Assembly: GCA_963764625.1 (NCBI GenBank)
Contig: CAVXTH010000005.1
Coordinates: 96,001 to 160,000, forward strand
Source: Candidatus Krumholzibacteriota bacterium
GTDB taxonomy: Bacteria > Krumholzibacteriota > Krumholzibacteriia > JAJRXK01
Direction of reading: 5' to 3'
Length of the DNA: 64,000 nt
Under the pieces are notes generated by a model. That model had not been told where the DNA came from and searched no databases. It was given only the letters and a program-made list of their open reading frames with translations. The position numbers and the translations under genes were made by a program. Each line of letters starts with the position of its first letter. Position 1 is the stretch's first letter. This document shows, one piece after another, positions 16,956-30,661 of the stretch.

Positions 16956-17417
16956 ATGAACGTCGAACAATTGATGCAGCATGTCGACCCCGCCCTCTGG
17001 ATTGGCAATTTCTCCTCACGCAGCAAAGACGAAGCGCTCCAAAAACTGACGGAAGTTCTCGTTTCGTCCGGAAAAGTCAAGAATGGCGCGGTCATTCTCG
17101 AAATGCTGCGCAATCGCGAGGCCCTGGGAAGCACCGCCGTCGGTAGCGGCGTGGCCTTTCCCCATGGCCGCTCGGTGGCCATCTCGGATCTGATCATCCT
17201 GGTCGCGCGCAGCACCAAGGGAATTGATTTCGACAGCATCGACGGCGAGAAGACCCGACTCTTCTTCCTCCTCTTGGCTCCTCCTCAGGACCGCGGGAAT
17301 GCCTACCTCCAGGCCTTGGGGGTGATCACCGGGCTCGTCCAACGGGACGACGTTCGGGAGAAGCTGCTGAACGCCACGAATTTCGACGCCATGATGACCG
17401 TGTTGAAGGAGGCCTGA
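16956..17417 (+). CDS. PTS EIIA (Ntr/Fru-type) domain protein
   Basis: REALGSTAVGSGVAFPHGR with the phospho-His, and GIDFDSIDG. Confidence 0.9.
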   Translation: MNVEQLMQHVDPALWIGNFSSRSKDEALQKLTEVLVSSGKVKNGAVILEMLRNREALGSTAVGSGVAFPHGRSVAISDLIILVARSTKGIDFDSIDGEKTRLFFLLLAPPQDRGNAYLQALGVITGLVQRDDVREKLLNATNFDAMMTVLKEA

Positions 17418-17420
17418 GGC

Positions 17421-17771
17421 TTGAGCCCCACGAACAATGTCCAGCTTCTCGTCGCCCTCCAAGATCTCGACCAAATGATCCGCGAAGCCGAAGACACCAA
17501 GAAGCGAGAAGCTCTGGAGAAGATGGGGTTTCCCGTGAGTGGGGTCGACGAGCTGCGCAAGGCCCACTCGAAGCTGGAAGCAAAGCTCCCGCCGCAGTTG
17601 GTGCGCCGCTACAAGCGCATCAAGGATCGCACCGGACGGGCCGTGGTGCCCGTGGTGGACAGCACCTGCACCGGTTGCTTCACGAACGTACCCTCGATCT
17701 TCACCAGCGCGGTCAACGAGAACAAAATCATGTTCTGCGAGACCTGCGGACGGATGCTCTTCTGGCCCTAG
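17421..17771 (+). CDS. Short C4 zinc-ribbon protein (DUF164 / CT398-HP0958-like)
   Basis: LVALQDLD N-terminus, Y.RI...G.AVVPV...CTGC...CETCGRML; 116 aa; TTG start. Confidence 0.82.
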   Translation: MSPTNNVQLLVALQDLDQMIREAEDTKKREALEKMGFPVSGVDELRKAHSKLEAKLPPQLVRRYKRIKDRTGRAVVPVVDSTCTGCFTNVPSIFTSAVNENKIMFCETCGRMLFWP

Positions 17772-17925
17772 GAAGCCCGGGCCTTCCTCTTTCCTCCCTG
17801 GCGGCTTCGGACCGGTCACCACGGCCAGAATCCGACCATGAGGGCCCGAGGAAGGCGGCGAAGGCTATGAGCATATCTCCTTTGTTTCCAGTGAGTTTCA
17901 TGTCCATCCGCGCTCGCCCGGGGGC

Positions 17926-17941
17926 GGGCACTCCCGTTGCA
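17926..17941 (+). promoter_or_regulatory. Putative sigma54 -24/-12 promoter
   Basis: GGGCACTCCCGTTGCA, upstream of bactofilin ATG 18040. Confidence 0.6.
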
Positions 17942-18039
17942 CCGGGTCGGGGCAGGGGGAGGTTTCTGGAACATCTTCCCTTTTCGCAACGGAACCCGAG
18001 CCCCGTGCCCCGAGGCGGGCACGCGACACTGGAGGAAGC

Positions 18040-18567
18040 ATGTTCGGAGGCAAGGAAAAGTCGCAGGATTTCAGTGGAATTCCCCCGACCCCGACCACCC
18101 CGACGGTGAACCCGAGCCCGAAGGCCAAGAACCAGAACAAGGATCAGATCACGGCCTATTTGGGACCCGACGTTCACATCGAGGGAAAATTGCGGTTTGA
18201 GAACGCGGTTCTCATCGAGGGCACCTTCAACGGTGAGATCGAGAGCGAAGGGAATCTGATCATCGGAGAGAACGCCGAGGTCGACGCGAAGATCACCACG
18301 AGGACCATCGCCATCAAGGGAAAGCTCAAGGGAAGCATCCACGCCTCGGAGAGGGTGGAGCTCCAGGGCCATGGCCAGCTCCAAGGCGATATCGTCACCC
18401 CTTCGTTGCAGATGGACGAGACGGTGTTCTTCCAGGGATCATGCTCGATGCCCTCGGGGTCGAGCACGCAGCACCAGTCGAGGCCGGCGGAGACCGCCAG
18501 CCACTCGACTCCGAAGCGGGAGACCGTGGACGAGATCGTGGATGCGGTGGGATCGAACAAGAACTGA
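18040..18567 (+). CDS. Bactofilin (polymer-forming cytoskeletal protein)
   Basis: Beta-helix repeats TAYLGPDVHIEGKL...IEGTFNGEI...LIIGENAEVDAKI...GDIVTPSLQM...FQGSCSM; GGAGG RBS. Confidence 0.92.
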   Translation: MFGGKEKSQDFSGIPPTPTTPTVNPSPKAKNQNKDQITAYLGPDVHIEGKLRFENAVLIEGTFNGEIESEGNLIIGENAEVDAKITTRTIAIKGKLKGSIHASERVELQGHGQLQGDIVTPSLQMDETVFFQGSCSMPSGSSTQHQSRPAETASHSTPKRETVDEIVDAVGSNKN

Positions 18568-20351: not shown

Positions 20352-22031
20352 CTATTGCAGGTCCAGATCCTGGAGATACGAAGCGCGGGTTCCCCCCACA
20401 TCCTCCTTGAAACGATCGTCCGAATGAGGGGACACCGGCGAGTGGGCCTTGATGTAGTCTGACAGGGCCTCGCGGGTGAGCATGCCGGTGTAGTTGACCT
20501 TGTCGGGGGGGATCTCGGCCAAGAAGTCCAGGCCGCTGTTTCCCTCCATCAGGAAGTCGCTGGTGATGACCTTGTATTCCTTCCCCGGCACGACGGGAGT
20601 GCCATCGACCAGAGTGAGTTGGAGCACTCGCTTGCCGAGGGGCGCATCCGGATCGACCACTGCCTTCACTCCGCTGTAGGCGATCCCGCTGCTGTTCCGA
20701 CCCGTCTTGCGCTCGAAGATGCGGCGGATCATCGAGCCGTCCATCTGTACCGTAGCCAGGGCGTTCCCGAAGGGAAGCACGCGCATCAGGTCTCCCTCCG
20801 TAATGCGGCCCACGGAGAGATCCGAGCGCAGCCCTCCCAGGTTCGTGAAGGAGAAATCGCCGTCCTGGGCCTCGAGCATGGCCGAGGTCACGAGGATCCC
20901 CATTCGCGAGAGCGGACCACCGTTGCGCGAGAGCTCCACCGCCGAGCGGCCCACCGTCTTGTCCAGACCCTTGCGGGCGTCCGCCACGTAGGGAGCCAAA
21001 TCGTCCGCCATTTCGGGGTCCGGCCAGTACTGATCCTCGAAGAGCGTAATGAGAGTTCCGTCGCGGCGCGGGCTCTCGTACCCCATGAGCTGCTTGGTCG
21101 CGCGGTCGATGAGGAGCACCACGTGTCCGATGGAGGAGCCGTTCCCGAAGGTCTCGAAGACCATCGCCTGCGTCACCGGATCGATCCACGGCTTGCGGTA
21201 TCCACGGTGAGTGTGACCGCCGATGATGACGGGGACTCCCGTGACCACGTGTGCGATGGCCATGTCACCCTCTGCATCGTGCTCGAGATCGTCGCCGGCC
21301 TTCACCCTCTTCTCGAGCTGTTTCCAACCGGTGTCGGGATCGTACGGCAAGCCCTCGTGGATGAGTGCGAAGACCATGTCGACGTGTTCCTTGTTCACCA
21401 GAATGTCACGGTACTTTTCGAGCGCGGGAGGAATAGGGCGGAAATCCAGACCCTTCACGTTCTCATCGAAGGCCATCGATTTGGTGGCGGGAGTGATGGC
21501 GCCGATGATCCCGATCTTGAGGCCGGCCTTCTCCACCACGCGATACGGCACCACCCAGTCGACGAGCTCGTCCGTACCCTCCTTGTAGATGTTGGCGCAG
21601 ACGAACTTCTGATTCATCGCGGCAGACATGCGAATGGGAACGTCCTTGCCCTTGTCGAATTCATGGTTCCCCACCGTGACCGCGTCGTAGTGCATGGTGT
21701 TGAAGTAGGTCTCCATGACCTTGCCCTTGCTCAGAGTTCCCACCGGAGCTCCCTGCCAGGTGTCACCCGCGTCGACCAACAGAACGGCCTGGTTGGGATC
21801 GTGGCTGGCTTCCGCCCTCACTTTCTGTACGTAGGCCGCCGCCGCCGCGCCACCGCCCAGAGGAGGCGGAAAATCGGGGCTCATGAAGCGCGCCGCCTCG
21901 GGCCCGACGTGACCGTGGATGTCGTTCGTCCACAACAGATTCAGACGGATCATCCCGTCGTTCTCGGCCCGCGCGACCGGCGCGAGAAGAGAGCAAAGGG
22001 CGAGGATGAGAAAAAGCGTTTTGGCTCGCAT
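20352..22031 (-). CDS. Secreted bifunctional metallophosphatase / 5'-nucleotidase (UshA-like)
   Basis: Signal peptide; TNDIHGH, DAGD, VGNHEFD, GGHTH metallophosphoesterase motifs; C-terminal N.GGLRSDL...VLPFGN...SDFL..G.SG domain. Confidence 0.92.
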   Translation of the reverse strand: MRAKTLFLILALCSLLAPVARAENDGMIRLNLLWTNDIHGHVGPEAARFMSPDFPPPLGGGAAAAAYVQKVRAEASHDPNQAVLLVDAGDTWQGAPVGTLSKGKVMETYFNTMHYDAVTVGNHEFDKGKDVPIRMSAAMNQKFVCANIYKEGTDELVDWVVPYRVVEKAGLKIGIIGAITPATKSMAFDENVKGLDFRPIPPALEKYRDILVNKEHVDMVFALIHEGLPYDPDTGWKQLEKRVKAGDDLEHDAEGDMAIAHVVTGVPVIIGGHTHRGYRKPWIDPVTQAMVFETFGNGSSIGHVVLLIDRATKQLMGYESPRRDGTLITLFEDQYWPDPEMADDLAPYVADARKGLDKTVGRSAVELSRNGGPLSRMGILVTSAMLEAQDGDFSFTNLGGLRSDLSVGRITEGDLMRVLPFGNALATVQMDGSMIRRIFERKTGRNSSGIAYSGVKAVVDPDAPLGKRVLQLTLVDGTPVVPGKEYKVITSDFLMEGNSGLDFLAEIPPDKVNYTGMLTREALSDYIKAHSPVSPHSDDRFKEDVGGTRASYLQDLDLQ

Positions 22032-22096
22032 GACTTACTCCTGGGGGTGTCCACTGATCATGGGCTTCGTCTGTTCTGTCCCACAAGATAGTAAAG

Positions 22097-23469
22097 CTAG
22101 AAGCTCCGCGAGACCCCCAAGAGAAGGGTCACCATCCCGTCTTCCACTTTCGAGAGGCTCGTCGGCGCCGCGTCGTCCGGGCGATCGGTCCACTGGTAGG
22201 GTTCGATCGAAAATGAAGGCCTGCCGGGAGGTTTGCCGGTGATACTGGAGCGTCACGTCGATCTGGTAATCCGCGGCCTTGTAACCAACTCCGCCGGAGA
22301 AGATCGACCGATTCGACTCGGGATCGGCGTAGTTCTCCAGATAACGGAATCCGAAGCGGGCCGGCACGTTGTTGTAGAAGACGTGTTCCAGACCAAAGCG
22401 CACGTCCCAGGTGTTCGCGGAGGGAACGCTCTGCGAAATGAAGGCCGCGGTCCGATAGCTGTCCGCGGCGATGCCTTCCCAGAAACGGCGCACCACGTCC
22501 ACCGAAAACACGGTGGCCAGTTCATTGCGGGGGCGATAGGTGAGACCGGCGCGGAGCGTGCCGGGGTACTTGATCTTCACGTCCTCACCGCCCACCGGCA
22601 TGACAACCATGCTCTGGTCGTAGGGCATCCACGACTCCGACCGTCGAATCGAATCGAGAGGTGATCGCTCCCTCCACCGTGAACGGCGCCTCGAAACTGG
22701 CACCGAGATCCAACCGCTCGTTCACCGTCCCCGAGGCCCCCACCGTGATTCCCCAGCCCGAGAGCTCGTGCTCGAACGCGGCCGAGCCCGGATCGCTGAG
22801 GAAATTACTCTGATAGATGGGGGTGGTGAGCGTGTTGGCCCGGTGCTTCAGCTTACCGAAATAGCGGTGGACGGTGAGCCCCAGGCGAAGCCGTGGCACG
22901 AGCTCCATGCCGTAGCCCACCGAGATGGAGCGCAGATGCCCTTCGATCTTATAGTCCCGCAGTTGAATCACCGCGTCGCGCGTATCGACGTAAGGTGAAG
23001 GATCACGGATCTCTTCGGAATAGTCGTAGTTGAAGCTGTAGCGGTCGAAGATCCCGATTCCCAGGGTCATGTTTCTCTCCGGCGAGAGCCGGTAGATGGC
23101 CCCTCCCTGTCCGAGACCGTAGCTGTTGCGATTGCTGGCCACGGTGGTGTCGGTGAGGTAGGAGTTGAAGGAGTCGAAGAGCGGTTGGAACCGGTCTTCG
23201 TTGGCCTGCAAGATGCCACCGTTGACTTCGAGCAAAAGGCGGCCGTCCATCTGCGAGAGCATCGCCGGGTTCGCCACCAGACTGGCGCTGCCCAGGTAAA
23301 GTGCTGCGCCCACCGAACCCATGGCTGCCGCCCGCGGTGTGGTGGCCGCGAAAGGCGTTCCAAATGCCGCGTCCAGCGTGGTGAATGCCACCGCCGGATG
23401 AACTGCCGCTACTTGCACCAGTAGAACCAGTGCTAGGACAAGTAGGCTTCTGCGAATCGTGCCACGCAT
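22097..23469 (-). CDS. Outer-membrane beta-barrel, FadL/OmpP1-like; two apparent frameshifts (near 22640 and 22200)
   Basis: Signal peptide and PRAAAMG...NPAML start. Joining frames gives ...KIKYPGTLRAGLTYRPRN...DVRFGLEH...RFGFRY...EDGMVTLLLGVSRSF* (terminal Phe, TAG at 22097). Confidence 0.72.
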
Positions 23470-23479
23470 GGGATACTCC

Positions 23480-26047
23480 CTAGAAGTTATAGTCGAGCTG
23501 GAGACGGAAGGCCGTGATTTCACGTTAGTCGCCCGCGCAGAAGTCGCTGGGGACGGAATTGGCGTATTGGCGAAGTTCCAGATTGTCCCGCGTCCGCTGC
23601 CGGTCGTGCGTCATTTTGAATCGTACGAGCATGCTGTCCGATAGCCGACTCTGCACGAGGAACCAGCTGCGAATACCCTGGCCATCGACCGCGATGAACT
23701 CGTTGTCCTCGAAGTTCCACAGAAAGCCGTCGTAGAGCTCCGTGCTCAAAGTGAACTGGAGGCGATCGTTGACATTGTGAACCAGCATGCCCTGGATGGC
23801 CTGACTGGGGCTGGCGGCTTGAGCCAGAGGAGTGAAATTGCTGCCATCGGGAACGGCCGGGCCGCTCAGGCGCGGACGCGGCGCGAAACTGTGTTGGTGT
23901 TGCTGTAGAGCAGGCGCAGTTCGTCGTAGGCCGTCAGGCGCCCGCGGACCTCGAAGCGTGAATCCCAGCTCTTGAAGCGCCGATTGTCGAAGAGTTCTTC
24001 AGAGGCGCGATCGCTGTAGCGCTGTCGCACGCGGAACCGTACTGGCCACACCGGTGCATACTCCACGCGAAGCGTGTAGCGGCGCTGGCTCTGGCTATCC
24101 GCCTTGCGCACCCACTGGTCGAATTCCAGACCGGAAATGGTGATCTGCCGGCTGATGCGGTAGCGCGTCTGCAGGAAGATGCCACGTTCGGCCTTGGTCT
24201 GTGGGCTGCTCGTCTCGAGCCAGGAATAGAGCGGAGAATTCAGGCGGAACGGATCGGAGAGCAGGGTCTGTCCGTAACGGTTGTCCTCGCCGAACGGCCG
24301 CGCGTAGGGATTGTCGAAGCCCACGTCGTAATCGCGGTAGAGGGCAAAGAGACTCAAGTTTTCGAACTGCGTATAGCCGGTGAACACCATGGCGTCCGGA
24401 GCATTGGAAAGGATGCCGCCATTGGGGTTCGAATCGAGTTTCGCGTATTCCCCCTGGAGAGCCACGTTGTCCACTACGGTCTGGAACTCGGCTCCCACCA
24501 CGCGGCGGAACTTGCCCAGTTGCATGGAGTCGTAGGCATTGAACAGTTCGGAATCCCTGCCGTCCAAGAGATCGGTCCGCGCCACCAGAGTGTTGACATT
24601 GGGATCCCAGGGGAGGTTGTGGTGCGCCTCGTAGCCGGAGAGACCGACGAAAGTGCCGGGCATGATCTCGTAGCGCAACAGGCCGCCGTAGAGCGTTTCA
24701 TCGAATGCACCGCGGCGAATGCCGCTTCCCATCTGCTCGTACTCGTCGTTCTCGAAGCGCGGACTCCCCACGATGTACTTGTTGATGCTCACCGCATCGC
24801 CGTTGGCATCGAAGTTCAGAATCCCGTCCTTCTTGGATCGCTGACGAAACCCAGGAACTGGAAATTGCCCAGCGAAGCCTCGGCCGCGGCTCCTCTGAGA
24901 GCGAACTCGTAGGAACGACTCATGTCCCCCAGGAGTCCCTGCGGGCGCTTGTTGAAGCCCGTCTCCAGTTTTGCGGGCTCAGACAGTAGTCGGTGTTATC
25001 CATGACCAAGCCCTGGCCGAACGCGACCCGAAAATTCCCCAGCACCACTTTGTCGAGCTGGAATCTCTCGGCGTTCTGGTTGCGCCACTCCAGGAAGTAC
25101 TTGGCGGTCTCCGCCAGATTGCGTTCACCCACGTCGCGGAAGGTGCTCACTCCCGCCTTCCACTGCAGCCCCATCCGCAGCCTCAGCTTGGTCAAAACCG
25201 CCGGGTTGGGGCTGTCCAGATGTTTGATCCCATAGGGAGTCTCCTGGTCGAAGATCGGATTCTGGGCGAGGGCATCCGCGGGATGAAAGGTCTCCGTCAG
25301 CACGTCCTTATCATTCAGCAGATAGGGCGTATTGAAGGTCTGAAGCTGCATGCTGCCGTGGAGCTTCAGGTCCGATTCCGGTGGCTCATAGACCACGTAA
25401 TCGCGGAGATTCCGGAACGCCCAGTAGTTCAATCCGTCTACGCTTCTCAATTGGCGCTCGCCTTGGATTTCCCCAGAACGCTCGCGCGCCTTGATGATGG
25501 CGGTCGCGTCCACCGGGGAGACGTTCTGATAACTCTGCAGATCGTAGAGCGAGAGATCGTTGATGTTGCGCGGCTCGAGCAACTGATCACGATACTCGTC
25601 CGCCAACTCTTCACTCGCCCCTTCCTGGCTCAAGAACCGTTGCAGTTGCCGGAACGATTCGTCGTAGCGACGCACCCAATCTTCCTGGGTCTTGGGCGGC
25701 ATCGTCGCGACGAGTGGCAACAGTTCCTTGATCATGGCCGGCGTGACGCCTTCGACGTGTCGCAAGTCGTAGATCGAGGAGAAATAGCTGCGGTAGGTGC
25801 GGTACTCGTAGATGGCGTCGGCTACCTCGGCGGGAATCGGCAGCTTCTTCAGCTGCTCCCGGGTCGCCCGGTTGAGGTCGAGCTTTCCCTGACTCAACGA
25901 TTCGTCGGTCTGGATTTTGCTGGCCTCGATGGCTTCCCGCCGCGAGTCACCCTGTTCGTACTGGGCATGAGAACTCGCCACGGGCAGCAGGCAAAACGCC
26001 GCCGCCAGGAGGAGTCCGCGCCGGATGCTCTTGCGCGGAGCGTTCAC
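23480..26047 (-). CDS. ComEA-like helix-hairpin-helix protein fused to an outer-membrane beta-barrel; at least four apparent frameshifts
   Basis: LDLNRATREQLKKLP...AIYEYR...FSSIYDLRHVEG HhH plus a second HhH. Then VLGNFRVAFGQGLVM, GFNKR..ALRGAAAE, LYRDYD. Reconstructed end is AFRLQLDYNF* (TAG at 23480). Confidence 0.75.
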
Positions 26048-26048
26048 G

Positions 26049-26963
26049 CTACTCCCCCCCTCCCGAGAAGCGATAGCTCAGACCGAATTGATGCGTCGAT
26101 TCGAGAATGCCTCCACCGGTGGAGAAGGCGTAGTCGAGGGTCGCGCCGTGAAAGTGCACCCCAAAGCCGGCGCAGAGCTTGTTGGGATCGGTTTGCAGAC
26201 CCGCCCGGAGATCGAGCACGTCGAGAATGCCGAACTCGGCTCCGCCATGGACGCGAAACTCCTCGCCCACGCGACTGCGGATGTCGAACGCGGTGGTGAC
26301 CTGCTCGTAGGGCTGGTAGCTCACGCCGATGGCCACCTGTTGGATGAGCTCTTCGCTGTCGTCACCGATCGTGGGATTGTTGATGTTCTTGGCGATGAAA
26401 CCGATCTTGGTCCGGTCCCACACCTCCACGATCCCGGAGATGTCCAGACCGGTGGCCCAGGCGTTTCCCGGGTCGATGCCGTTGCTGCCGTCACCCGCCA
26501 GACCGATGCTCTGTCCGAAATCGAGATTGTAGAAGTTCAGAGTCCACCCGACGGCCGCGCCAGAGGCATCGTCCTTGAAGAGCTGGAATCCATTGGAGAT
26601 GGAAACCGTATATTCGCTGAGCAAGCTCGTGCCTTGATTCTCGACTCCCAGGTGCCGAAGGCCGATGGCCACGCCACCCCAATTGCCCGGTAAGGGCATT
26701 GCACCCCCGACCGTGGAGAGTCGGTTGTAGCTGCCGTTGTTGGGCTCGGCCGTCGCCACCGCGGCTTGCGGTGTCGTCATCCAGGGCAACAGCGCGGGGT
26801 TGTTGTAGAAACTCCAAGCATCACCGTCGACGGCCACCACGGCTGAACCCATGGCACGCGCGCGCGGGCTCACGGCCAGATCGTCGAACGCGGCCCAAGT
26901 GCTCGTCGCGACGAGCAAAAACAGCGGCAACAGCAGGAGAATCGGAGTTCGTTTCGCTTGCAT
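26049..26963 (-). CDS. PorV/PorQ-like outer-membrane beta-barrel protein
   Basis: Signal peptide; SPRARAMGSA.VA..GDAWS.YNNPA.L; FIAKNINNP; LRAG; LDYA...L.STHQFGLSYRF. Confidence 0.78.
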   Translation of the reverse strand: MQAKRTPILLLLPLFLLVATSTWAAFDDLAVSPRARAMGSAVVAVDGDAWSFYNNPALLPWMTTPQAAVATAEPNNGSYNRLSTVGGAMPLPGNWGGVAIGLRHLGVENQGTSLLSEYTVSISNGFQLFKDDASGAAVGWTLNFYNLDFGQSIGLAGDGSNGIDPGNAWATGLDISGIVEVWDRTKIGFIAKNINNPTIGDDSEELIQQVAIGVSYQPYEQVTTAFDIRSRVGEEFRVHGGAEFGILDVLDLRAGLQTDPNKLCAGFGVHFHGATLDYAFSTGGGILESTHQFGLSYRFSGGGE

Positions 26964-26976
26964 TGAGCCGTGCCTC

Positions 26977-29900
26977 CTATCGATCCAGGCGTGACGCCAC
27001 GACCACGGGCATCTGCTTTTCGTTGGATCCGTTGCTCCCGGTCGAGCGCGTCTGCAGGTGAGCCACGTAAGCGCCAGCCGGTACGAACTCGCCGAATTCA
27101 TCCGTGCCATCCCATTCGATAGTTGCCCGGTTGTCGTTGAATACCGAGTCGAGGGGTTTCACTCGGCTGTCGAATAAGGTCTTCACAAGGGTCCCATTCA
27201 TGTTGAAGATTCTCAGGATCACTTCACCGTTTTTTGCGATGAGATCGGAGCTGAGGTTGATCGTCAGCGGATAGCGCTCGCCATCGCGCGGAAGGAAGGT
27301 GAAGGGCGGCCCGTCCAGAGTAATGGCGTCCACCAGGAGAGGTGCGAGAGCCGCGGTGATCCCCGGGGCCGCGATGGCGTTTCCATTTAGATCCGCCACT
27401 CCGCTCACGCGTACCGACCAGTTCTCCTCCAGTCCCAAGTTGCGATCGAGGTTGAGCCGGATCCGGGTGGTCGATCCAGAAACGAAAGCGGCGCCGGTCA
27501 CCCCGGCGGTTTCCGAGGGAGAGTTCGTCTGGAACACCTGGTAATTGCTGGAGTTCGTCGCGGAACTCGCTTCGACTGCTTCGCTGAAGTCGATGATCAC
27601 CGTCGAGGCGGTCTCCAGGCTGGCTCGGTCGATCCTGGGCGGCGAGGTGTCACCGGCCTGGCCTTCGAAGATGTCGCTCACCAACCCCACGTTGACCTGA
27701 TAGGTGCTCCCGAACAATCCACCCGCGCCGCGCGCGGTGATCGTGGTGCCCGTGGTGAAGGTGGGCGCATTGAGCGTATCCACCACGCGGACGTCGATCG
27801 GACCCGAGCCGTCGTTCACCGTATAGTTCACGCCGGGGCCTGCGACCGCCTGCGCGGTGATCGGTCCGGAGATTTCGATGAAGGTCCCTTCCCAGTTGTT
27901 GCTGGCCGCCGCACCGGTGGAGAGCTGCGCCGCCGAGGGCCGCGGATTCCCGCCCGACAACAGCGTCACTTCCGTCGGATTTTCGATTTCGACGGTGGTG
28001 AAGTACAGAGAGACCGTTCCCGTCACGCGCACCGCATTCCCTATGGTGCGCGCGGCCGCCACGCCGAAGCCATTGCCGAAGAGATTGATCCCCCTGCCGG
28101 AGGAATCCTGAATGTACCCGGAGGTGGTCGTCCCGCGGTAATCGCTGGGGATGTACACCACGCCTTCCACCGTGACCACTTGACCGTCGTAGTTCGCGGG
28201 ATTGGCCTGGATGGTGGCGATGGGAGTGGCATTGGAGGTGGTGTAGGTGAAGACGGCGGTGTTGCTGCCCGCGATCAGGTTCCCCGCCAGATCTTTTACG
28301 TTGCTCACCGAAACGGTGTAGGAAGTGTCCTCGGTCAGGGAGGACGAGAGGCTCAGCGTGACGTGGCTCCCGTTGAGGGATGCGCCGTTCACCGCGATGG
28401 TATTGGCGGGAGTCGAGGTCTGGAACACCTGGTAGTTGCCCGCGGTCTGGGCCGTCGTGGTATCGAGGGATTCGTTGAAATTCACCGTGACCGAAGTGGC
28501 TGACGAAGCGCTCGCGCCGGTGACGGTGGGCGGAGTGGTGTCGACTCCGCCTCCGGTGGACACGTCGCTGACCAGACCCACGAGCACTTGAAAGTCGGGA
28601 CTGAACTCTCCACCCGCTCCGCGCGCGGTGATGGTGGTTCCAGTGCTGAAGCTCGGCGCGCCCAGAGTATCGACGATCCTGACCACGATCGGTCCCGATC
28701 CGTCATTGACCGTGTAGTTGGTCCCCGGTCCGCCGACTGCCTGCGCGGTGATGGGACCGGTGACCTCGATGAAGGTTCCCTCCCACTGCGAGTTGGCCGC
28801 CGCGCCGGTGGAAAGTTGCACTGGTGAAGGCCGCGAATTGCCGCCCGACAGGACCGCCACTTCTGTGGGATTGGCGATCTCGACGGTGGAGAAGTAGAGG
28901 GAGACGGTGCCAGTCACCCTGATCCGATTTCCCACGGTCTGCGCGGCCGGAACGTCGAAGCCACTGCCAAAGACATTGATGCCGCGACCCGAAGAATCCT
29001 GGATGTAGCCGGAGATGGTGGCGCCACGGTAGTCGCTGGGGATGTACACCACGCCCTCCACCGTCACCACTTGACCGTCGTAGCTGGCGGGATTGGCTTG
29101 AATGTCCGCGATGGAAGTGGCGGAAGAAGCGCTAAAGCTGAAGGTCGCCGTATTACTGGTGCCAATCACACCGCCCTGCGTGTCCTCGACATCGGCCACC
29201 TCGACGGTGTAGCCCACTCCGTCGCTGAGCGAAGAGCCCAGACTGAGGGTGACGCTGGAGGTCGCGGCGCTCACCCCGACCACGCTCAGAGGACTTCCTG
29301 GCTGCGCGGTGGGATAAACCGTGAACGACCCCGGGTCGCTCGCGCTGGCCGCGTCGATCGCTTTGTTGAAATTCACTACCACGGTGGTGGCGTCGCTGGC
29401 CGAGGCATCGCTGACCGCGAGTTCCACCGGCCCCGCGGTGGAGACGTCGGAGAGGGCGCCCACGAGCACCTGGAAAGTGGTGGAGAAGGCCCCTCCCGCG
29501 CCACGCGCGGTGATCGTGGTGCCGTTGCTGAAGCTGGGCGCGCTGAGGGTGTCCACCACCCGTACGTCGATCGGGCCCGAGCCGTCGTTGATCGTGTAGT
29601 TGATACCGGGTCCGGAGACCGCCTGGCTCACGATGGAGCCGGTCACCTCGATGAAGGTGCCCTCCCACTGCGAATTCGCCGCCGCCCCGGTGGTGAGTTG
29701 GACCGGTGAAGGCCGCGGATTGCCGCCCGACAGGACCGCCACTTCGGTGGGATTGGAGATCTCGACCGTGGTGAAGTACAGAGAGACGGTGCCGGTCACC
29801 CTGATCCGGTTGCCCACGGTCTGCGCGGCCGGAACGTCGAAGCCGGTGCCGAAGAGATTGATGCCGCGACCCGAGCTGTCCTGGATGTAACCGGAGATCG

Positions 29901-30381
29901 TGGCGCCGCGATAGTCGGACGGGATGTACACGGTGCCTTCCACCGTGACGACCTGCCCGTCATACGCGGCCTCGTTCCCTTGAATGTCCCCGATGGGTGT
30001 GGCGGAGCTGCCTCCCCCGCTGGCGGTGAAATCCATCGACGGCGCGCCCGAGATGGCTTGGCCGGTGGTGTTCTCCACGTTCTGCACCCGCATCGTGTAG
30101 ACCACGCCACCGGTCAGGGGGGTGGAGAGAGTGATCGTCACCGTTGCTTGTGACACCGCTGCGTTCGAGAGAGTGGGGCGGTTCCCCGTGTTGTCCTTCT
30201 CGAAGAGGAGATAGTTAGCGACCGTCTCGCCGGTCACGGGGTCGATGTTCTCGGAGAAGGTCACGACCACCGTGGACAGGTCGGTGTTCTCGACAGAGAC
30301 CAAGGTCGGCTGCGCCGCCGCGGTCGTGATGCCCAACGCGAGAAGAATCCAAAGGCTCGAGGCGGCCATGGTCATGGCCAT
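26977..30381 (-). CDS. Large secreted modular protein: 4 Ig-like domains alternating with 3 double OB-fold repeats, C-terminal FlgD-Ig/CTD-like domain
   Basis: Ig units V.V.F(S/N)E.(I/L/V)D...(A/S)NY...Y(T)V.V.NV.D..G. OB units PI..IQ...YDGQVVTVEG.V...YIQDSSG.GI...GN.IRVTG.V..YF..VEI followed by WEG..IEV...YT.NDGSG. Tail LRIFNMNG.LVKTL...WDGTDEFG..VPAGAY. Confidence 0.85.
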   Translation of the reverse strand: MAMTMAASSLWILLALGITTAAAQPTLVSVENTDLSTVVVTFSENIDPVTGETVANYLLFEKDNTGNRPTLSNAAVSQATVTITLSTPLTGGVVYTMRVQNVENTTGQAISGAPSMDFTASGGGSSATPIGDIQGNEAAYDGQVVTVEGTVYIPSDYRGATISGYIQDSSGRGINLFGTGFDVPAAQTVGNRIRVTGTVSLYFTTVEISNPTEVAVLSGGNPRPSPVQLTTGAAANSQWEGTFIEVTGSIVSQAVSGPGINYTINDGSGPIDVRVVDTLSAPSFSNGTTITARGAGGAFSTTFQVLVGALSDVSTAGPVELAVSDASASDATTVVVNFNKAIDAASASDPGSFTVYPTAQPGSPLSVVGVSAATSSVTLSLGSSLSDGVGYTVEVADVEDTQGGVIGTSNTATFSFSASSATSIADIQANPASYDGQVVTVEGVVYIPSDYRGATISGYIQDSSGRGINVFGSGFDVPAAQTVGNRIRVTGTVSLYFSTVEIANPTEVAVLSGGNSRPSPVQLSTGAAANSQWEGTFIEVTGPITAQAVGGPGTNYTVNDGSGPIVVRIVDTLGAPSFSTGTTITARGAGGEFSPDFQVLVGLVSDVSTGGGVDTTPPTVTGASASSATSVTVNFNESLDTTTAQTAGNYQVFQTSTPANTIAVNGASLNGSHVTLSLSSSLTEDTSYTVSVSNVKDLAGNLIAGSNTAVFTYTTSNATPIATIQANPANYDGQVVTVEGVVYIPSDYRGTTTSGYIQDSSGRGINLFGNGFGVAAARTIGNAVRVTGTVSLYFTTVEIENPTEVTLLSGGNPRPSAAQLSTGAAASNNWEGTFIEISGPITAQAVAGPGVNYTVNDGSGPIDVRVVDTLNAPTFTTGTTITARGAGGLFGSTYQVNVGLVSDIFEGQAGDTSPPRIDRASLETASTVIIDFSEAVEASSATNSSNYQVFQTNSPSETAGVTGAAFVSGSTTRIRLNLDRNLGLEENWSVRVSGVADLNGNAIAAPGITAALAPLLVDAITLDGPPFTFLPRDGERYPLTINLSSDLIAKNGEVILRIFNMNGTLVKTLFDSRVKPLDSVFNDNRATIEWDGTDEFGEFVPAGAYVAHLQTRSTGSNGSNEKQMPVVVASRLDR
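27672..30003 (-). repeat. Three intragenic ~560-bp near-duplicate blocks encoding the OB-fold pairs
   Basis: Anchor GATGTACA recurs at 28150, 29041 and 29923 (spacing 891 and 882 nt), with long stretches of shared flanking DNA. Confidence 0.88.
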
Positions 30382-30661
30382 TCCCAGTTTGCGTCGCAAG
30401 GGTCCAGCTCCTTGGCTGACGGCCCCGAAGCGGGGTCGCCGATCGGATCTCAGCGGGGAGCGATCGAGTCACAGTGGAGAGGACGAGAGGCGCCCTTCCA
30501 AGATTCGCGGACCGCTGCTACCCGTAGGAAAGAGAAACTACGCTAGCAAACTCGCGAGTGTTGGGAAAGAAGAAGATGCAATTCTCCCGCAATTCTCTTC
30601 CGCGCGGTGGGAGGCGAGGCCACGACCACCGGATGAGGTGGAAGCAGAAAGGCGAAGAATA

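Follow-up and report, generated by a model that had tools for sequence, protein, structure and literature searches.

A five-gene operon of a Krumholzibacteriota genome joins a type IX secretion-type scaffold, a ComEA-like barrel fusion and a 5'-nucleotidase: a candidate system for scavenging extracellular nucleic acids

The DNA analysed in this study, referred to as the window, is a stretch of 64,000 nucleotides from a Candidatus Krumholzibacteriota bacterium (assembly GCA_963764625.1, contig CAVXTH010000005.1, positions 96,001 to 160,000), whose genome of 3.57 Mb is divided into 9 contigs with the window falling on contig C5. The open reading frame (ORF) map of the window shows five tightly packed, co-directional genes on the minus strand (20352-30399), separated by gaps of 1 to about 65 nt. 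In order they encode a scaffold protein with tandem OB folds and a sorting domain typical of type IX secretion systems (T9SS), a PorV-like outer-membrane barrel, a fusion of two ComEA-type helix-hairpin-helix (HhH) domains with a large barrel (now on referred to as the HhH-barrel), a FadL-like barrel and a 5'-nucleotidase. Judged by eye, a signal peptide is present in all five products, each with charge at the N-terminus followed by a hydrophobic stretch and an AxA-type site. An initial annotation of the same DNA had described this anatomy and was correct regarding the packing, direction and order of the genes as well as the signal peptides. The parts of this operon have not been met together in any studied system but are conserved across many uncultured bacterial phyla, and they may constitute a machinery for scavenging extracellular nucleic acids.

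The first gene (26977..30399, minus strand) encodes the scaffold, the putative T9SS cargo of 1140 aa. A combination of Pfam and NCBIfam scans, repeat analysis, AlphaFold2 (AF2) modelling and hhalign divides it into a signal peptide, three modules of one Ig-like (Big_5) domain followed by two OB folds, a fourth Ig-like domain and a C-terminal sorting domain (CTD). Pfam placed Big_5 in four stretches and gave a weak OB match, while tblastn self-matches showed that the three modules, located at 29410..30312 (module 1, delimited by these matches and alignment), 28540-29397 (module 2) and 27670-28530 (module 3), are 60–67% identical to one another. The ExeM/NucH profile NF033681 reached 48.3 bits against a cut-off of 300 and covered only profile positions 32–113, which correspond to the OB part, and neither an EEP domain nor any other nuclease domain was found in the scaffold by the Pfam and NCBIfam scans. 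The fold of module 1 as modelled by AF2 (pLDDT 90.1) resembles tandem-OB DNA binders, with the HIN-200 proteins including p202 (4jbm) in first place followed by Teb1, POT1 and RPA. When the window module was compared by hhalign to the DUF5689-type modules of more distant cargo proteins the probability was 98.9% (E 2e-17), which suggests that the OB modules of the window are remote homologues of DUF5689-type modules. In the distant locus L169 the cargo region aligned to the window module has only a weak DUF5689 match, below the cut-off (E 4.4e-4), and in L126 the DUF5689 match that passes the cut-off (48.1 bits) sits in a different region of the cargo.

The last 115 aa of the scaffold make up the CTD (26980..27324), its sorting and anchor domain, which is the sole part common to all cargo types and is recognised by an HMM (hidden Markov model) built for the CTDs of this cluster. 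On the scaffold no match to Por_Secre_tail or FlgD_ig was found by Pfam at E ≤ 0.01; its tail matches the tail of PorU (NCBIfam, E 3.2e-5), and the homologous CTDs of distant cargo pass FlgD_ig with 30–36 bits (cut-off 27). Directly downstream follows the gene of a dedicated outer-membrane barrel of 304 aa (26049..26963, minus strand), assigned to the PorV/PorQ family from NF033709, a PDB profile match and its own HMM. NF033709 gives it 55.8 bits (53.7 when the whole genome is scanned) and has a cut-off of 90, which is thus missed, and a profile of 65 orthologues found PorV of F. johnsoniae (6h3i_F) as its sole match in PDB, with E 2.8e-7 and over the N-terminal part only. The relation to PorV proposed in the initial annotation is upheld by this sequence match to a solved PorV.

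In the genome scan, 15 PorV-family matches were obtained and seven other loci exceed the NF033709 cut-off. The HMM of the PorV-like barrel scored 394.7 bits on the operon gene compared to 60.7 bits on its best paralogue, and the CTD HMM 126.3 bits on the scaffold compared to 43.0 bits on the next ORF, so that by their profiles CTD and barrel are a distinct, divergent pair set apart from the paralogues of the genome. Generic T9SS components are encoded elsewhere, SprA on contig C9 and PorU on contig C6, the latter directly followed by a PorV scoring 179.7 bits, and about 45 ORFs of the genome have a PorU-like CTD; the barrels of the operon are thus not simply the generic T9SS parts, a possibility that the initial annotation had raised against itself. 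Modelling the PorV-like barrel in complex with the last 115 aa of the scaffold gave an ipSAE of 0.88, whereas the best of three controls gave 0.00; the ipSAE mark used was attained for 58 out of 80 solved complexes and for 2 out of 110 mismatched pairs. The runs agreed in at least 92% of the contacts with a partner pLDDT of at least 84, and the CTD is accordingly predicted to dock on the barrel, in keeping with the pairing suggested beforehand. One of the 15 PorV-family matches lies inside a 739-aa ORF (C9:936811-939027).

The third gene (23525..26047, minus strand), interrupted by about four frame breaks, encodes the HhH-barrel, which according to HHH_3 matches and a fold model consists of a signal peptide, a pair of HhH domains of the ComEA type (about 25721-25891 and 25394-25567) and a barrel of ~24–26 strands ending in ...DYxF. 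HHH_3 was matched in two stretches with 61 bits (cut-off 27), both over the cut-off in the genome scan, while TIGR01259, which covers the whole ComEA protein, gave 55.2 bits and stayed below its cut-off of 152. An intact orthologue of 860 aa, 88% identical to the window over the N-terminal part, was modelled with a pLDDT of 87.8 and a pTM of 0.84. In this model a signal peptide and a disordered linker are seen along with a helical HhH region (residues 55–215), after which come ~25 strands (residues 229–859) with a terminal Phe, i.e. HhH domains fused to a barrel of ~630 aa. The first HhH domain superposes on ComEA of Geobacillus (8dss_B) with Z 11.9 and an rmsd of 1.2 Å over 64 residues at 30% identity, and the barrel comes nearest to FimD and PapC, usher pores of 24 strands (Z about 14, 365–367 residues, rmsd about 5 Å), in a tie with many other barrels. 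No plug, TonB-dependent receptor or CarboxypepD_reg match was found on any of the operon proteins in the Pfam and NCBIfam scans. Members of the HhH-barrel family have been named automatically in a protein atlas as 'hypothetical', 'HhH domain-containing' or 'putative competence protein ComEA (modular)'.

The fourth gene (22097..23469, end approximate, minus strand) would encode a FadL/TodX-family barrel of ~455 aa if intact, but about two frame breaks divide it. The broken pieces score 17.4 bits with PF03349, next to weak BamG and PorV_fam matches, and the intact orthologue of the same-genus locus L013 passes the cut-off (33.3 against 29.7 bits); this orthologue had no match among PDB sequences at E ≤ 0.1. 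The last gene (20352..22031, minus strand) encodes a UshA/CD73-family 5'-nucleotidase of 559 aa with a signal peptide of the signal peptidase I (SPI) type. Both its domains, Metallophos (PF00149, 30.9 bits) and 5_nucleotid_C (PF02872, 111.1 bits), exceed their cut-offs, the motifs NDIHGH, GD, GNHEFD and GGHTH are all readable, and the best PDB match is 3ivd (E 1e-57) followed by UshA and CD73. The UshA equivalog NF007109 scored 165.7 bits with a cut-off of 600, and the enzyme is by these scores a member of the UshA family and not an orthologue of UshA. The fusion of ComEA-type HhH domains to a barrel, the FadL-like barrel and the UshA-type nucleotidase, all three named in the initial annotation, were confirmed by domain matches (for the FadL-like barrel, in the intact orthologue) and, for the fusion, by the superposition on ComEA.

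The frame breaks lie near 24975, 24963, 24843 and 23890 in the HhH-barrel gene and near 22640-22700 and 22195 in the FadL-like gene. In the same genus the HhH-barrel orthologues are single ORFs of 861–870 aa, and the pieces between the breaks are 81–88% identical to an intact orthologue. Short-read contigs from four runs, with patchy cover and none at 22822-23369, were compared to the window, and near-identical contigs across the broken sites differ by 0–2 substitutions but by 1–5 gaps; contigs of three public runs have one base fewer at 24963 and one at 24975. The genes of PorU (C6:500978-505505) and SprA (C9:993505-1000012) are likewise split over several frames. Since the near-identical contigs differ by gaps at these very sites and PorU and SprA are also split, the breaks in the two barrel genes are most likely assembly errors; errors of this type seem to be assembly-wide, and gene calls in this genome therefore need a frame-aware reading. 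The approximately six breaks are all confined to the 4 kb of the two barrel genes (22000-26100), while the remaining 6 kb of the operon are free of them, a clustering that is unlikely if the errors are evenly spread and for which no reason was found.

To what extent the genes occur together was addressed with HMMs built from operon loci, counting only loci with enough flanking sequence. The N-terminal part of the HhH-barrel was matched in 17 of 41 related genomes, and all 16 loci around those matches have the same gene order as far as the contigs extend. When a species-level genome collection was searched with the HhH-barrel profile 113 relatives were found; among the best 80 of these 113, the near or Krumholzibacteriota-type loci, the PorV-like barrel (76/76), the CTD (72/72), the FadL-like barrel (68/68) and the nucleotidase (54/54) are always present. 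In the phylum as a whole the barrel is present in 95 of 208 genomes; it occurs in three of the nine families (7/9, 84/91 and 3/7 genomes) and is absent from the other six. When 1.84 billion representative proteins were searched with a profile, 136 matches reached E ≤ 1e-30, and from an alignment of the distant matches 80 further loci were collected, labelled as WOR-3, TA06, Edwardsbacteria, Stahlbacteria, Fermentibacteria/Aegiribacteria, Cloacimonadota, Hydrothermota and Latescibacterota metagenome-assembled genomes (MAGs). In this distant set the PorV-like barrel was found in 65 of 67 loci, the CTD in 42 of 67, the FadL-like barrel in 50 of 71 and the nucleotidase in 35 of 51. The HslU or Mrp genes that flank the operon in the window are kept in none of 32 full-length distant loci and are absent already in 7 of 43 full-length near loci, and as the cluster persists where these flanks are gone it is conserved as a unit and not through local synteny alone. 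The co-conservation on which the initial annotation had made its proposal depend therefore holds in the Krumholzibacteriota and largely also in distant candidate phyla of the Fibrobacteres-Chlorobi-Bacteroidetes (FCB) type without the housekeeping flanks, the invariant core being cargo, PorV-like barrel and HhH-barrel.

The cargo is more variable. A domain scan of 47 out of 60 complete cargo genes (13 were omitted, four of them near-duplicates) revealed a lamin-tail domain (LTD) in 38, Big_5 in 12 and CBM_56 in 11. Cargo of the Ig-OB-OB type was seen in the window's own family and in loci labelled Eisenbacteria, while distant cargo proteins show Pfam DUF5689 and OB matches, at times together with an LTD in the same protein. 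The OB scaffold is consequently present here as annotated, in the form of (Ig-OB-OB)x3-Ig-CTD, but it is not the common form. A profile of the LTD cargo had only weak matches in PDB, to an Ig-like part of peptidylarginine deiminase (E about 2e-3). One WOR-3 cargo (L112:4611-7202) combines an LTD with a weak DUF5689 match (25.5 bits, below the cut-off); ExeM likewise pairs an LTD with OB folds, which offers a lead on the role of the LTD.

In a number of relatives the operon contains an additional nuclease-like gene. Between the FadL-like gene and the nucleotidase gene, 14 of 54 near loci harbour a gene of the metallo-beta-lactamase (MBL) fold whose best PDB matches are to the nuclease domain of ComEC (E 2.4e-11 and 1.4e-9); all 14 proteins contain the motif HxHxDH and a lipobox Cys at the N-terminus, i.e. 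a lipoprotein signal. At the same position 11 of 51 distant loci have genes of small phospholipase D (PLD) proteins (PLDc_2), best matched in PDB by the endonuclease Nuc (1byr, E 4.5e-8) and then by NucT, accompanied by a shortened phosphatase of the 5'-nucleotidase family. L169 (11526-13627) and a further ten distant loci have two Nuc-type PLD genes in tandem and behind them such a phosphatase of 302 aa, which matches only the N-terminal metallophosphatase half of 5'-nucleotidases. That two unrelated nuclease families have been recruited to the same slot speaks more strongly than any other new finding for nucleic acid as the substrate. Apparent fusions of MBL domain and nucleotidase in some loci are long frames overlapping a separate MBL frame and were treated as spurious frames of high-GC DNA. 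The MBL gene was not found in the source genome by tblastn with four queries, and the HMM gave only ComEC and a weak match in a 2201-aa ORF. Other nucleases are encoded outside the operon: one ORF of 996 aa combines an EndA-type (Endonuclease_1) domain with a T9SS-type CTD (C9:124171-125130), and its product would be a T9SS-secreted nuclease that could supply the operon. The genome further contains genes for another EndA-domain protein (C7:232301-233038), an ExeM-like protein (C4:30921-32372), ComEC, a small ComEA-type HhH protein distinct from the HhH-barrel, and a secretin.

The closest analogue among characterised systems is the locus ddbABCDEF, known from gut Bacteroidales as a DNA-utilisation locus and, in Bacteroides thetaiotaomicron, described as encoding three nucleases, the TonB-dependent transporter DdbC and its DUF5689 partner DdbD with a p202-like fold, and as being related to the transformation genes of Riemerella (PMC12478041). 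Both loci join a surface DNA binder (putative in the operon, and in DdbD of the HIN/p202-like tandem-OB type), an outer-membrane transporter (in the operon a candidate) and secreted or periplasmic hydrolases, in a layout resembling polysaccharide utilisation loci (PULs) with lipoprotein enzymes outside and SPI enzymes in the periplasm. The OB modules of the window match the same p202 structure (4jbm) that was aligned with DdbD in that work and appear to be remotely homologous to DUF5689-type modules. The differences are considerable. The operon lacks a TonB-dependent transporter of the DdbC type, and its candidate conduit is the plug-less barrel of ~24–26 strands with N-terminal ComEA domains; its candidate DNA binder is a T9SS cargo predicted to dock on the PorV-like barrel in place of a lipoprotein lid; further components are a FadL-like barrel and a 5'-nucleotidase; the nucleases are optional, belong to other families (ComEC-type MBL, Nuc-type PLD) and are missing from the operon of the window; and the carriers are Krumholzibacteriota, WOR-3, TA06, Fermentibacteria and others, not Bacteroidales. 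The words helix-hairpin, ComEA, type IX and nucleotidase are absent from the ddb paper (PMC12478041). No published description of the cluster was found, although homologues may be present in the supplementary tables of PMC12478041 and PMC8459023. The statement of the initial annotation that no characterised system was known to it must accordingly be revised, as the ddb locus and the Riemerella genes provide an analogue.

In Riemerella anatipestifer three proteins, one a DUF5689 protein of the surface, one a barrel and one with HhH (RA0C_RS04920, RS04915 and RS02645), are each reported as essential for transformation and fall outside the classical machinery (PMC8459023). This set shares with the operon the triad of surface protein, barrel and HhH domains, the extracellular DNA as the presumed target and the lack of classical pilus parts, but each of its components has a gene of its own, a carboxypeptidase-regulatory-like domain is part of the barrel and transformation is the result, while in the operon HhH domains and barrel form one protein and a nucleotidase stands at the end. 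The HhH domains of the operon match HHH_3 and superpose on Geobacillus ComEA, although ComEA is a small stand-alone protein and here two such domains form the N-terminus of an 860-aa barrel. In the T9SS, PorU-PorV and PorZ-PorQ act as anchor pairs and SprA-PorV as translocon. The operon similarly encodes a CTD-bearing protein beside a PorV/PorQ-family barrel with predicted binding between them, but barrel and CTD are divergent, operon-specific paralogues coupled to a large barrel and a catabolic enzyme. Secreted proteins with OB folds or lamin-tail domains that act on extracellular DNA include Xds and YhcR of Bacillus. ExeM consists of an LTD, two OB folds and an EEP nuclease, with the OB region being essential and the LTD of unknown function (PMC6085458). 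ExeM and NucH share OB-fold pairs and lamin-tail domains with the cargo proteins. In contrast to ExeM, NucH, Xds and YhcR, neither an EEP nor any other nuclease domain is present in the scaffold. The operon keeps the logic of ddb, Riemerella and ExeM and swaps the hardware, with a T9SS cargo and a PorV-like dock for the lipoprotein lid and a ComEA-barrel fusion for the TonB-dependent transporter.

Taken together, we propose with a probability of about 0.55 that the operon is an extracellular nucleic-acid scavenging system, linked to the T9SS and a TonB-independent counterpart of the Bacteroidales ddb loci, where nucleic-acid binding, passage through the barrel and the nature of the substrate are inferred. 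The general T9SS would export the scaffold, and the CTD would hold it on the surface by docking, as predicted in silico, on the PorV-like barrel of the operon. Outside the cell the tandem OB modules, replaced in most relatives by LTDs, would bind DNA or RNA, and nucleases would cut the polymer, here encoded elsewhere (EndA-type, ExeM-like) and in relatives within the operon (MBL lipoprotein, PLD). The fragments could then cross the outer membrane through the large barrel, with the two ComEA-type HhH domains in the periplasm holding them and ratcheting them inward. The FadL-like barrel might serve as a second anchor or as a channel for small products, which is the weakest step. Finally the periplasmic 5'-nucleotidase, whose family is clear from its domains and whose substrate is presumed, would strip phosphate so that nucleosides and phosphate enter the cell.

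Several observations weigh against this reading. LTDs, described as being of unknown function (PMC6085458), replace the OB scaffold in 38 of the 47 scanned cargo proteins, and in LTD-type cargo the OB module was not detected by hhalign (0.8%). The carbohydrate-binding CBM_56 occurs in 11 of the 47, Pfam DUF5689 matched none of 28 window-type modules at E ≤ 1 and gave no match anywhere in the source genome, and Pfam and NCBIfam scans, the map of the pieces and the HMMs found no nuclease in the operon of the window. Thirteen distant loci, labelled WOR-3, Hydrothermota or unlabelled MAGs, stop after the HhH-barrel and have neither the FadL-like nor the nucleotidase gene, and in another three the FadL-like gene is there without a nucleotidase gene. 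Besides nucleotides, enzymes of the UshA family hydrolyse UDP-sugars, NAD and cyclic nucleotides. The positive result of the CTD-PorV model may partly reflect likeness to solved PorV complexes. Among solved structures the large barrel matches generic large barrels only (Foldseek TM 0.2–0.32) and VIA scores were tied across many barrel types (Z 11–14), so that no specific solved relative could be named and the open pore of the HhH-barrel stays a proposal.

The main rival is that the operon forms the outer-membrane stage of natural transformation, a pilus-independent machine of the FCB group in which surface receptor, conduit and built-in ComEA pass DNA to ComEC for recombination and not as food. 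The requirement in Riemerella for a DUF5689 surface protein, a beta-barrel and an HhH protein, all non-classical (PMC8459023), and the stated relationship of the ddb loci to that system (PMC12478041) agree with such a role, and so does the ComEC-type character of the optional nuclease in combination with the ComEC encoded in the genome. Against a function in recombination stand, on the other hand, a nucleotidase retained in 54/54 near and 35/51 distant loci and Nuc-type endonucleases in the operons of relatives, which point to full degradation, and with the separate ComEA-type gene and secretin the genome has the means for classical uptake. Both the conserved nucleotidase and the separate ComEA, ComEC and secretin weaken this explanation, which is in our opinion unlikely. 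Alternatively, the scaffold might tie the cell to a DNA-rich or other matrix, as a module for surface anchoring or adhesion with the barrels as anchors only and the nucleotidase acting independently on free nucleotides such as ATP. The invariant core of cargo, PorV-like barrel and HhH-barrel, the 13 distant loci reduced to these three, the predicted CTD-barrel docking and the cargo itself, built from repeated Ig-like, OB, LTD and CBM-type binding domains without any catalytic domain, would all suit an adhesin. It leaves unexplained, however, why periplasm-type ComEA domains are fused to a barrel of ~24 strands and why different nucleases have repeatedly been recruited beside a nucleotidase, and we regard it as quite unlikely.

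A different substrate has to be weighed as well, i.e. import of a polysaccharide, a nucleotide-sugar or another phosphorylated polymer, with the likeness of the OB, LTD and HhH domains being misleading. FadL-family channels are linked to hydrophobic substrates, the family names of UshA-type enzymes include hydrolysis of UDP-sugars and other compounds, and both CBM_56, seen in 11 of the 47 cargo proteins, and the LTD, whose function is given as unknown (PMC6085458), leave room for such a substrate. The convergence of ComEA-type HhH, ComEC-type MBL, Nuc-type PLD, HIN-like or DUF5689-like tandem OB and ExeM-type OB plus LTD in one kind of locus nevertheless argues for nucleic acids and makes this alternative very unlikely. 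Slightly less probable still is that the operon is decaying, with the two middle barrel genes as true pseudogenes and the system inactive in this genome. Such a decay would account for the crowding of the breaks into the barrel genes but not for the near-identical contigs that differ almost only by gaps at the broken sites, including the single bases lacking at 24963 and 24975 in three runs, nor for the split PorU and SprA genes of the same assembly or the high identity of the pieces to an intact orthologue.

Returning to scavenging, a more specific proposal concerns the HhH-barrel, which would represent a new class of outer-membrane nucleic-acid channel, plug-less with ~24–26 strands, equipped with its own ComEA-type ratchet, independent of TonB, type IV pilus and secretin, and in a fixed complex with a T9SS-delivered, PorV-docked receptor. 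This is tentative and we consider it doubtful on balance. The DNA routes described across the Gram-negative outer membrane are the pilus/secretin route and the recent TonB-dependent DdbC/D-type of Bacteroidota; the operon points to a further solution, and if the proposal is true the HhH-barrel would be a third route, widespread in uncultured phyla of the FCB group. Soils and sediments hold a large store of phosphorus, nitrogen and carbon in the form of extracellular DNA; the carrier phyla are common there and have few or no cultured members. The operon offers a candidate DNA channel, a defined cargo-anchor pair and a genomic marker by which DNA foraging could be traced in metagenomes. A further general role of PorV-family paralogues is suggested as well, since they may commonly serve as dedicated docks for particular cargo, here nutrient-capture proteins.

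Upstream the operon is flanked by PtsN-like and Mrp/NUBPL genes and downstream by HslU-like and RsgA genes. The leader or promoter region between the PtsN-like and the scaffold gene (30400..30661, minus strand) was aligned with those of four same-genus loci (L013–L016). The alignment of the five loci revealed an invariant T.TGCTAG block ~150 nt before the scaffold start, a GC-rich hairpin just 5' of the ribosome-binding site AAGGAG and a conserved TTG at 30399 as start codon of the scaffold; block and hairpin could be a promoter or regulatory element. Between HslU and RsgA (17016-18384) two overlapping minus-strand ORFs of 268 and 218 aa without a Pfam match were observed, possibly another frame-broken gene.

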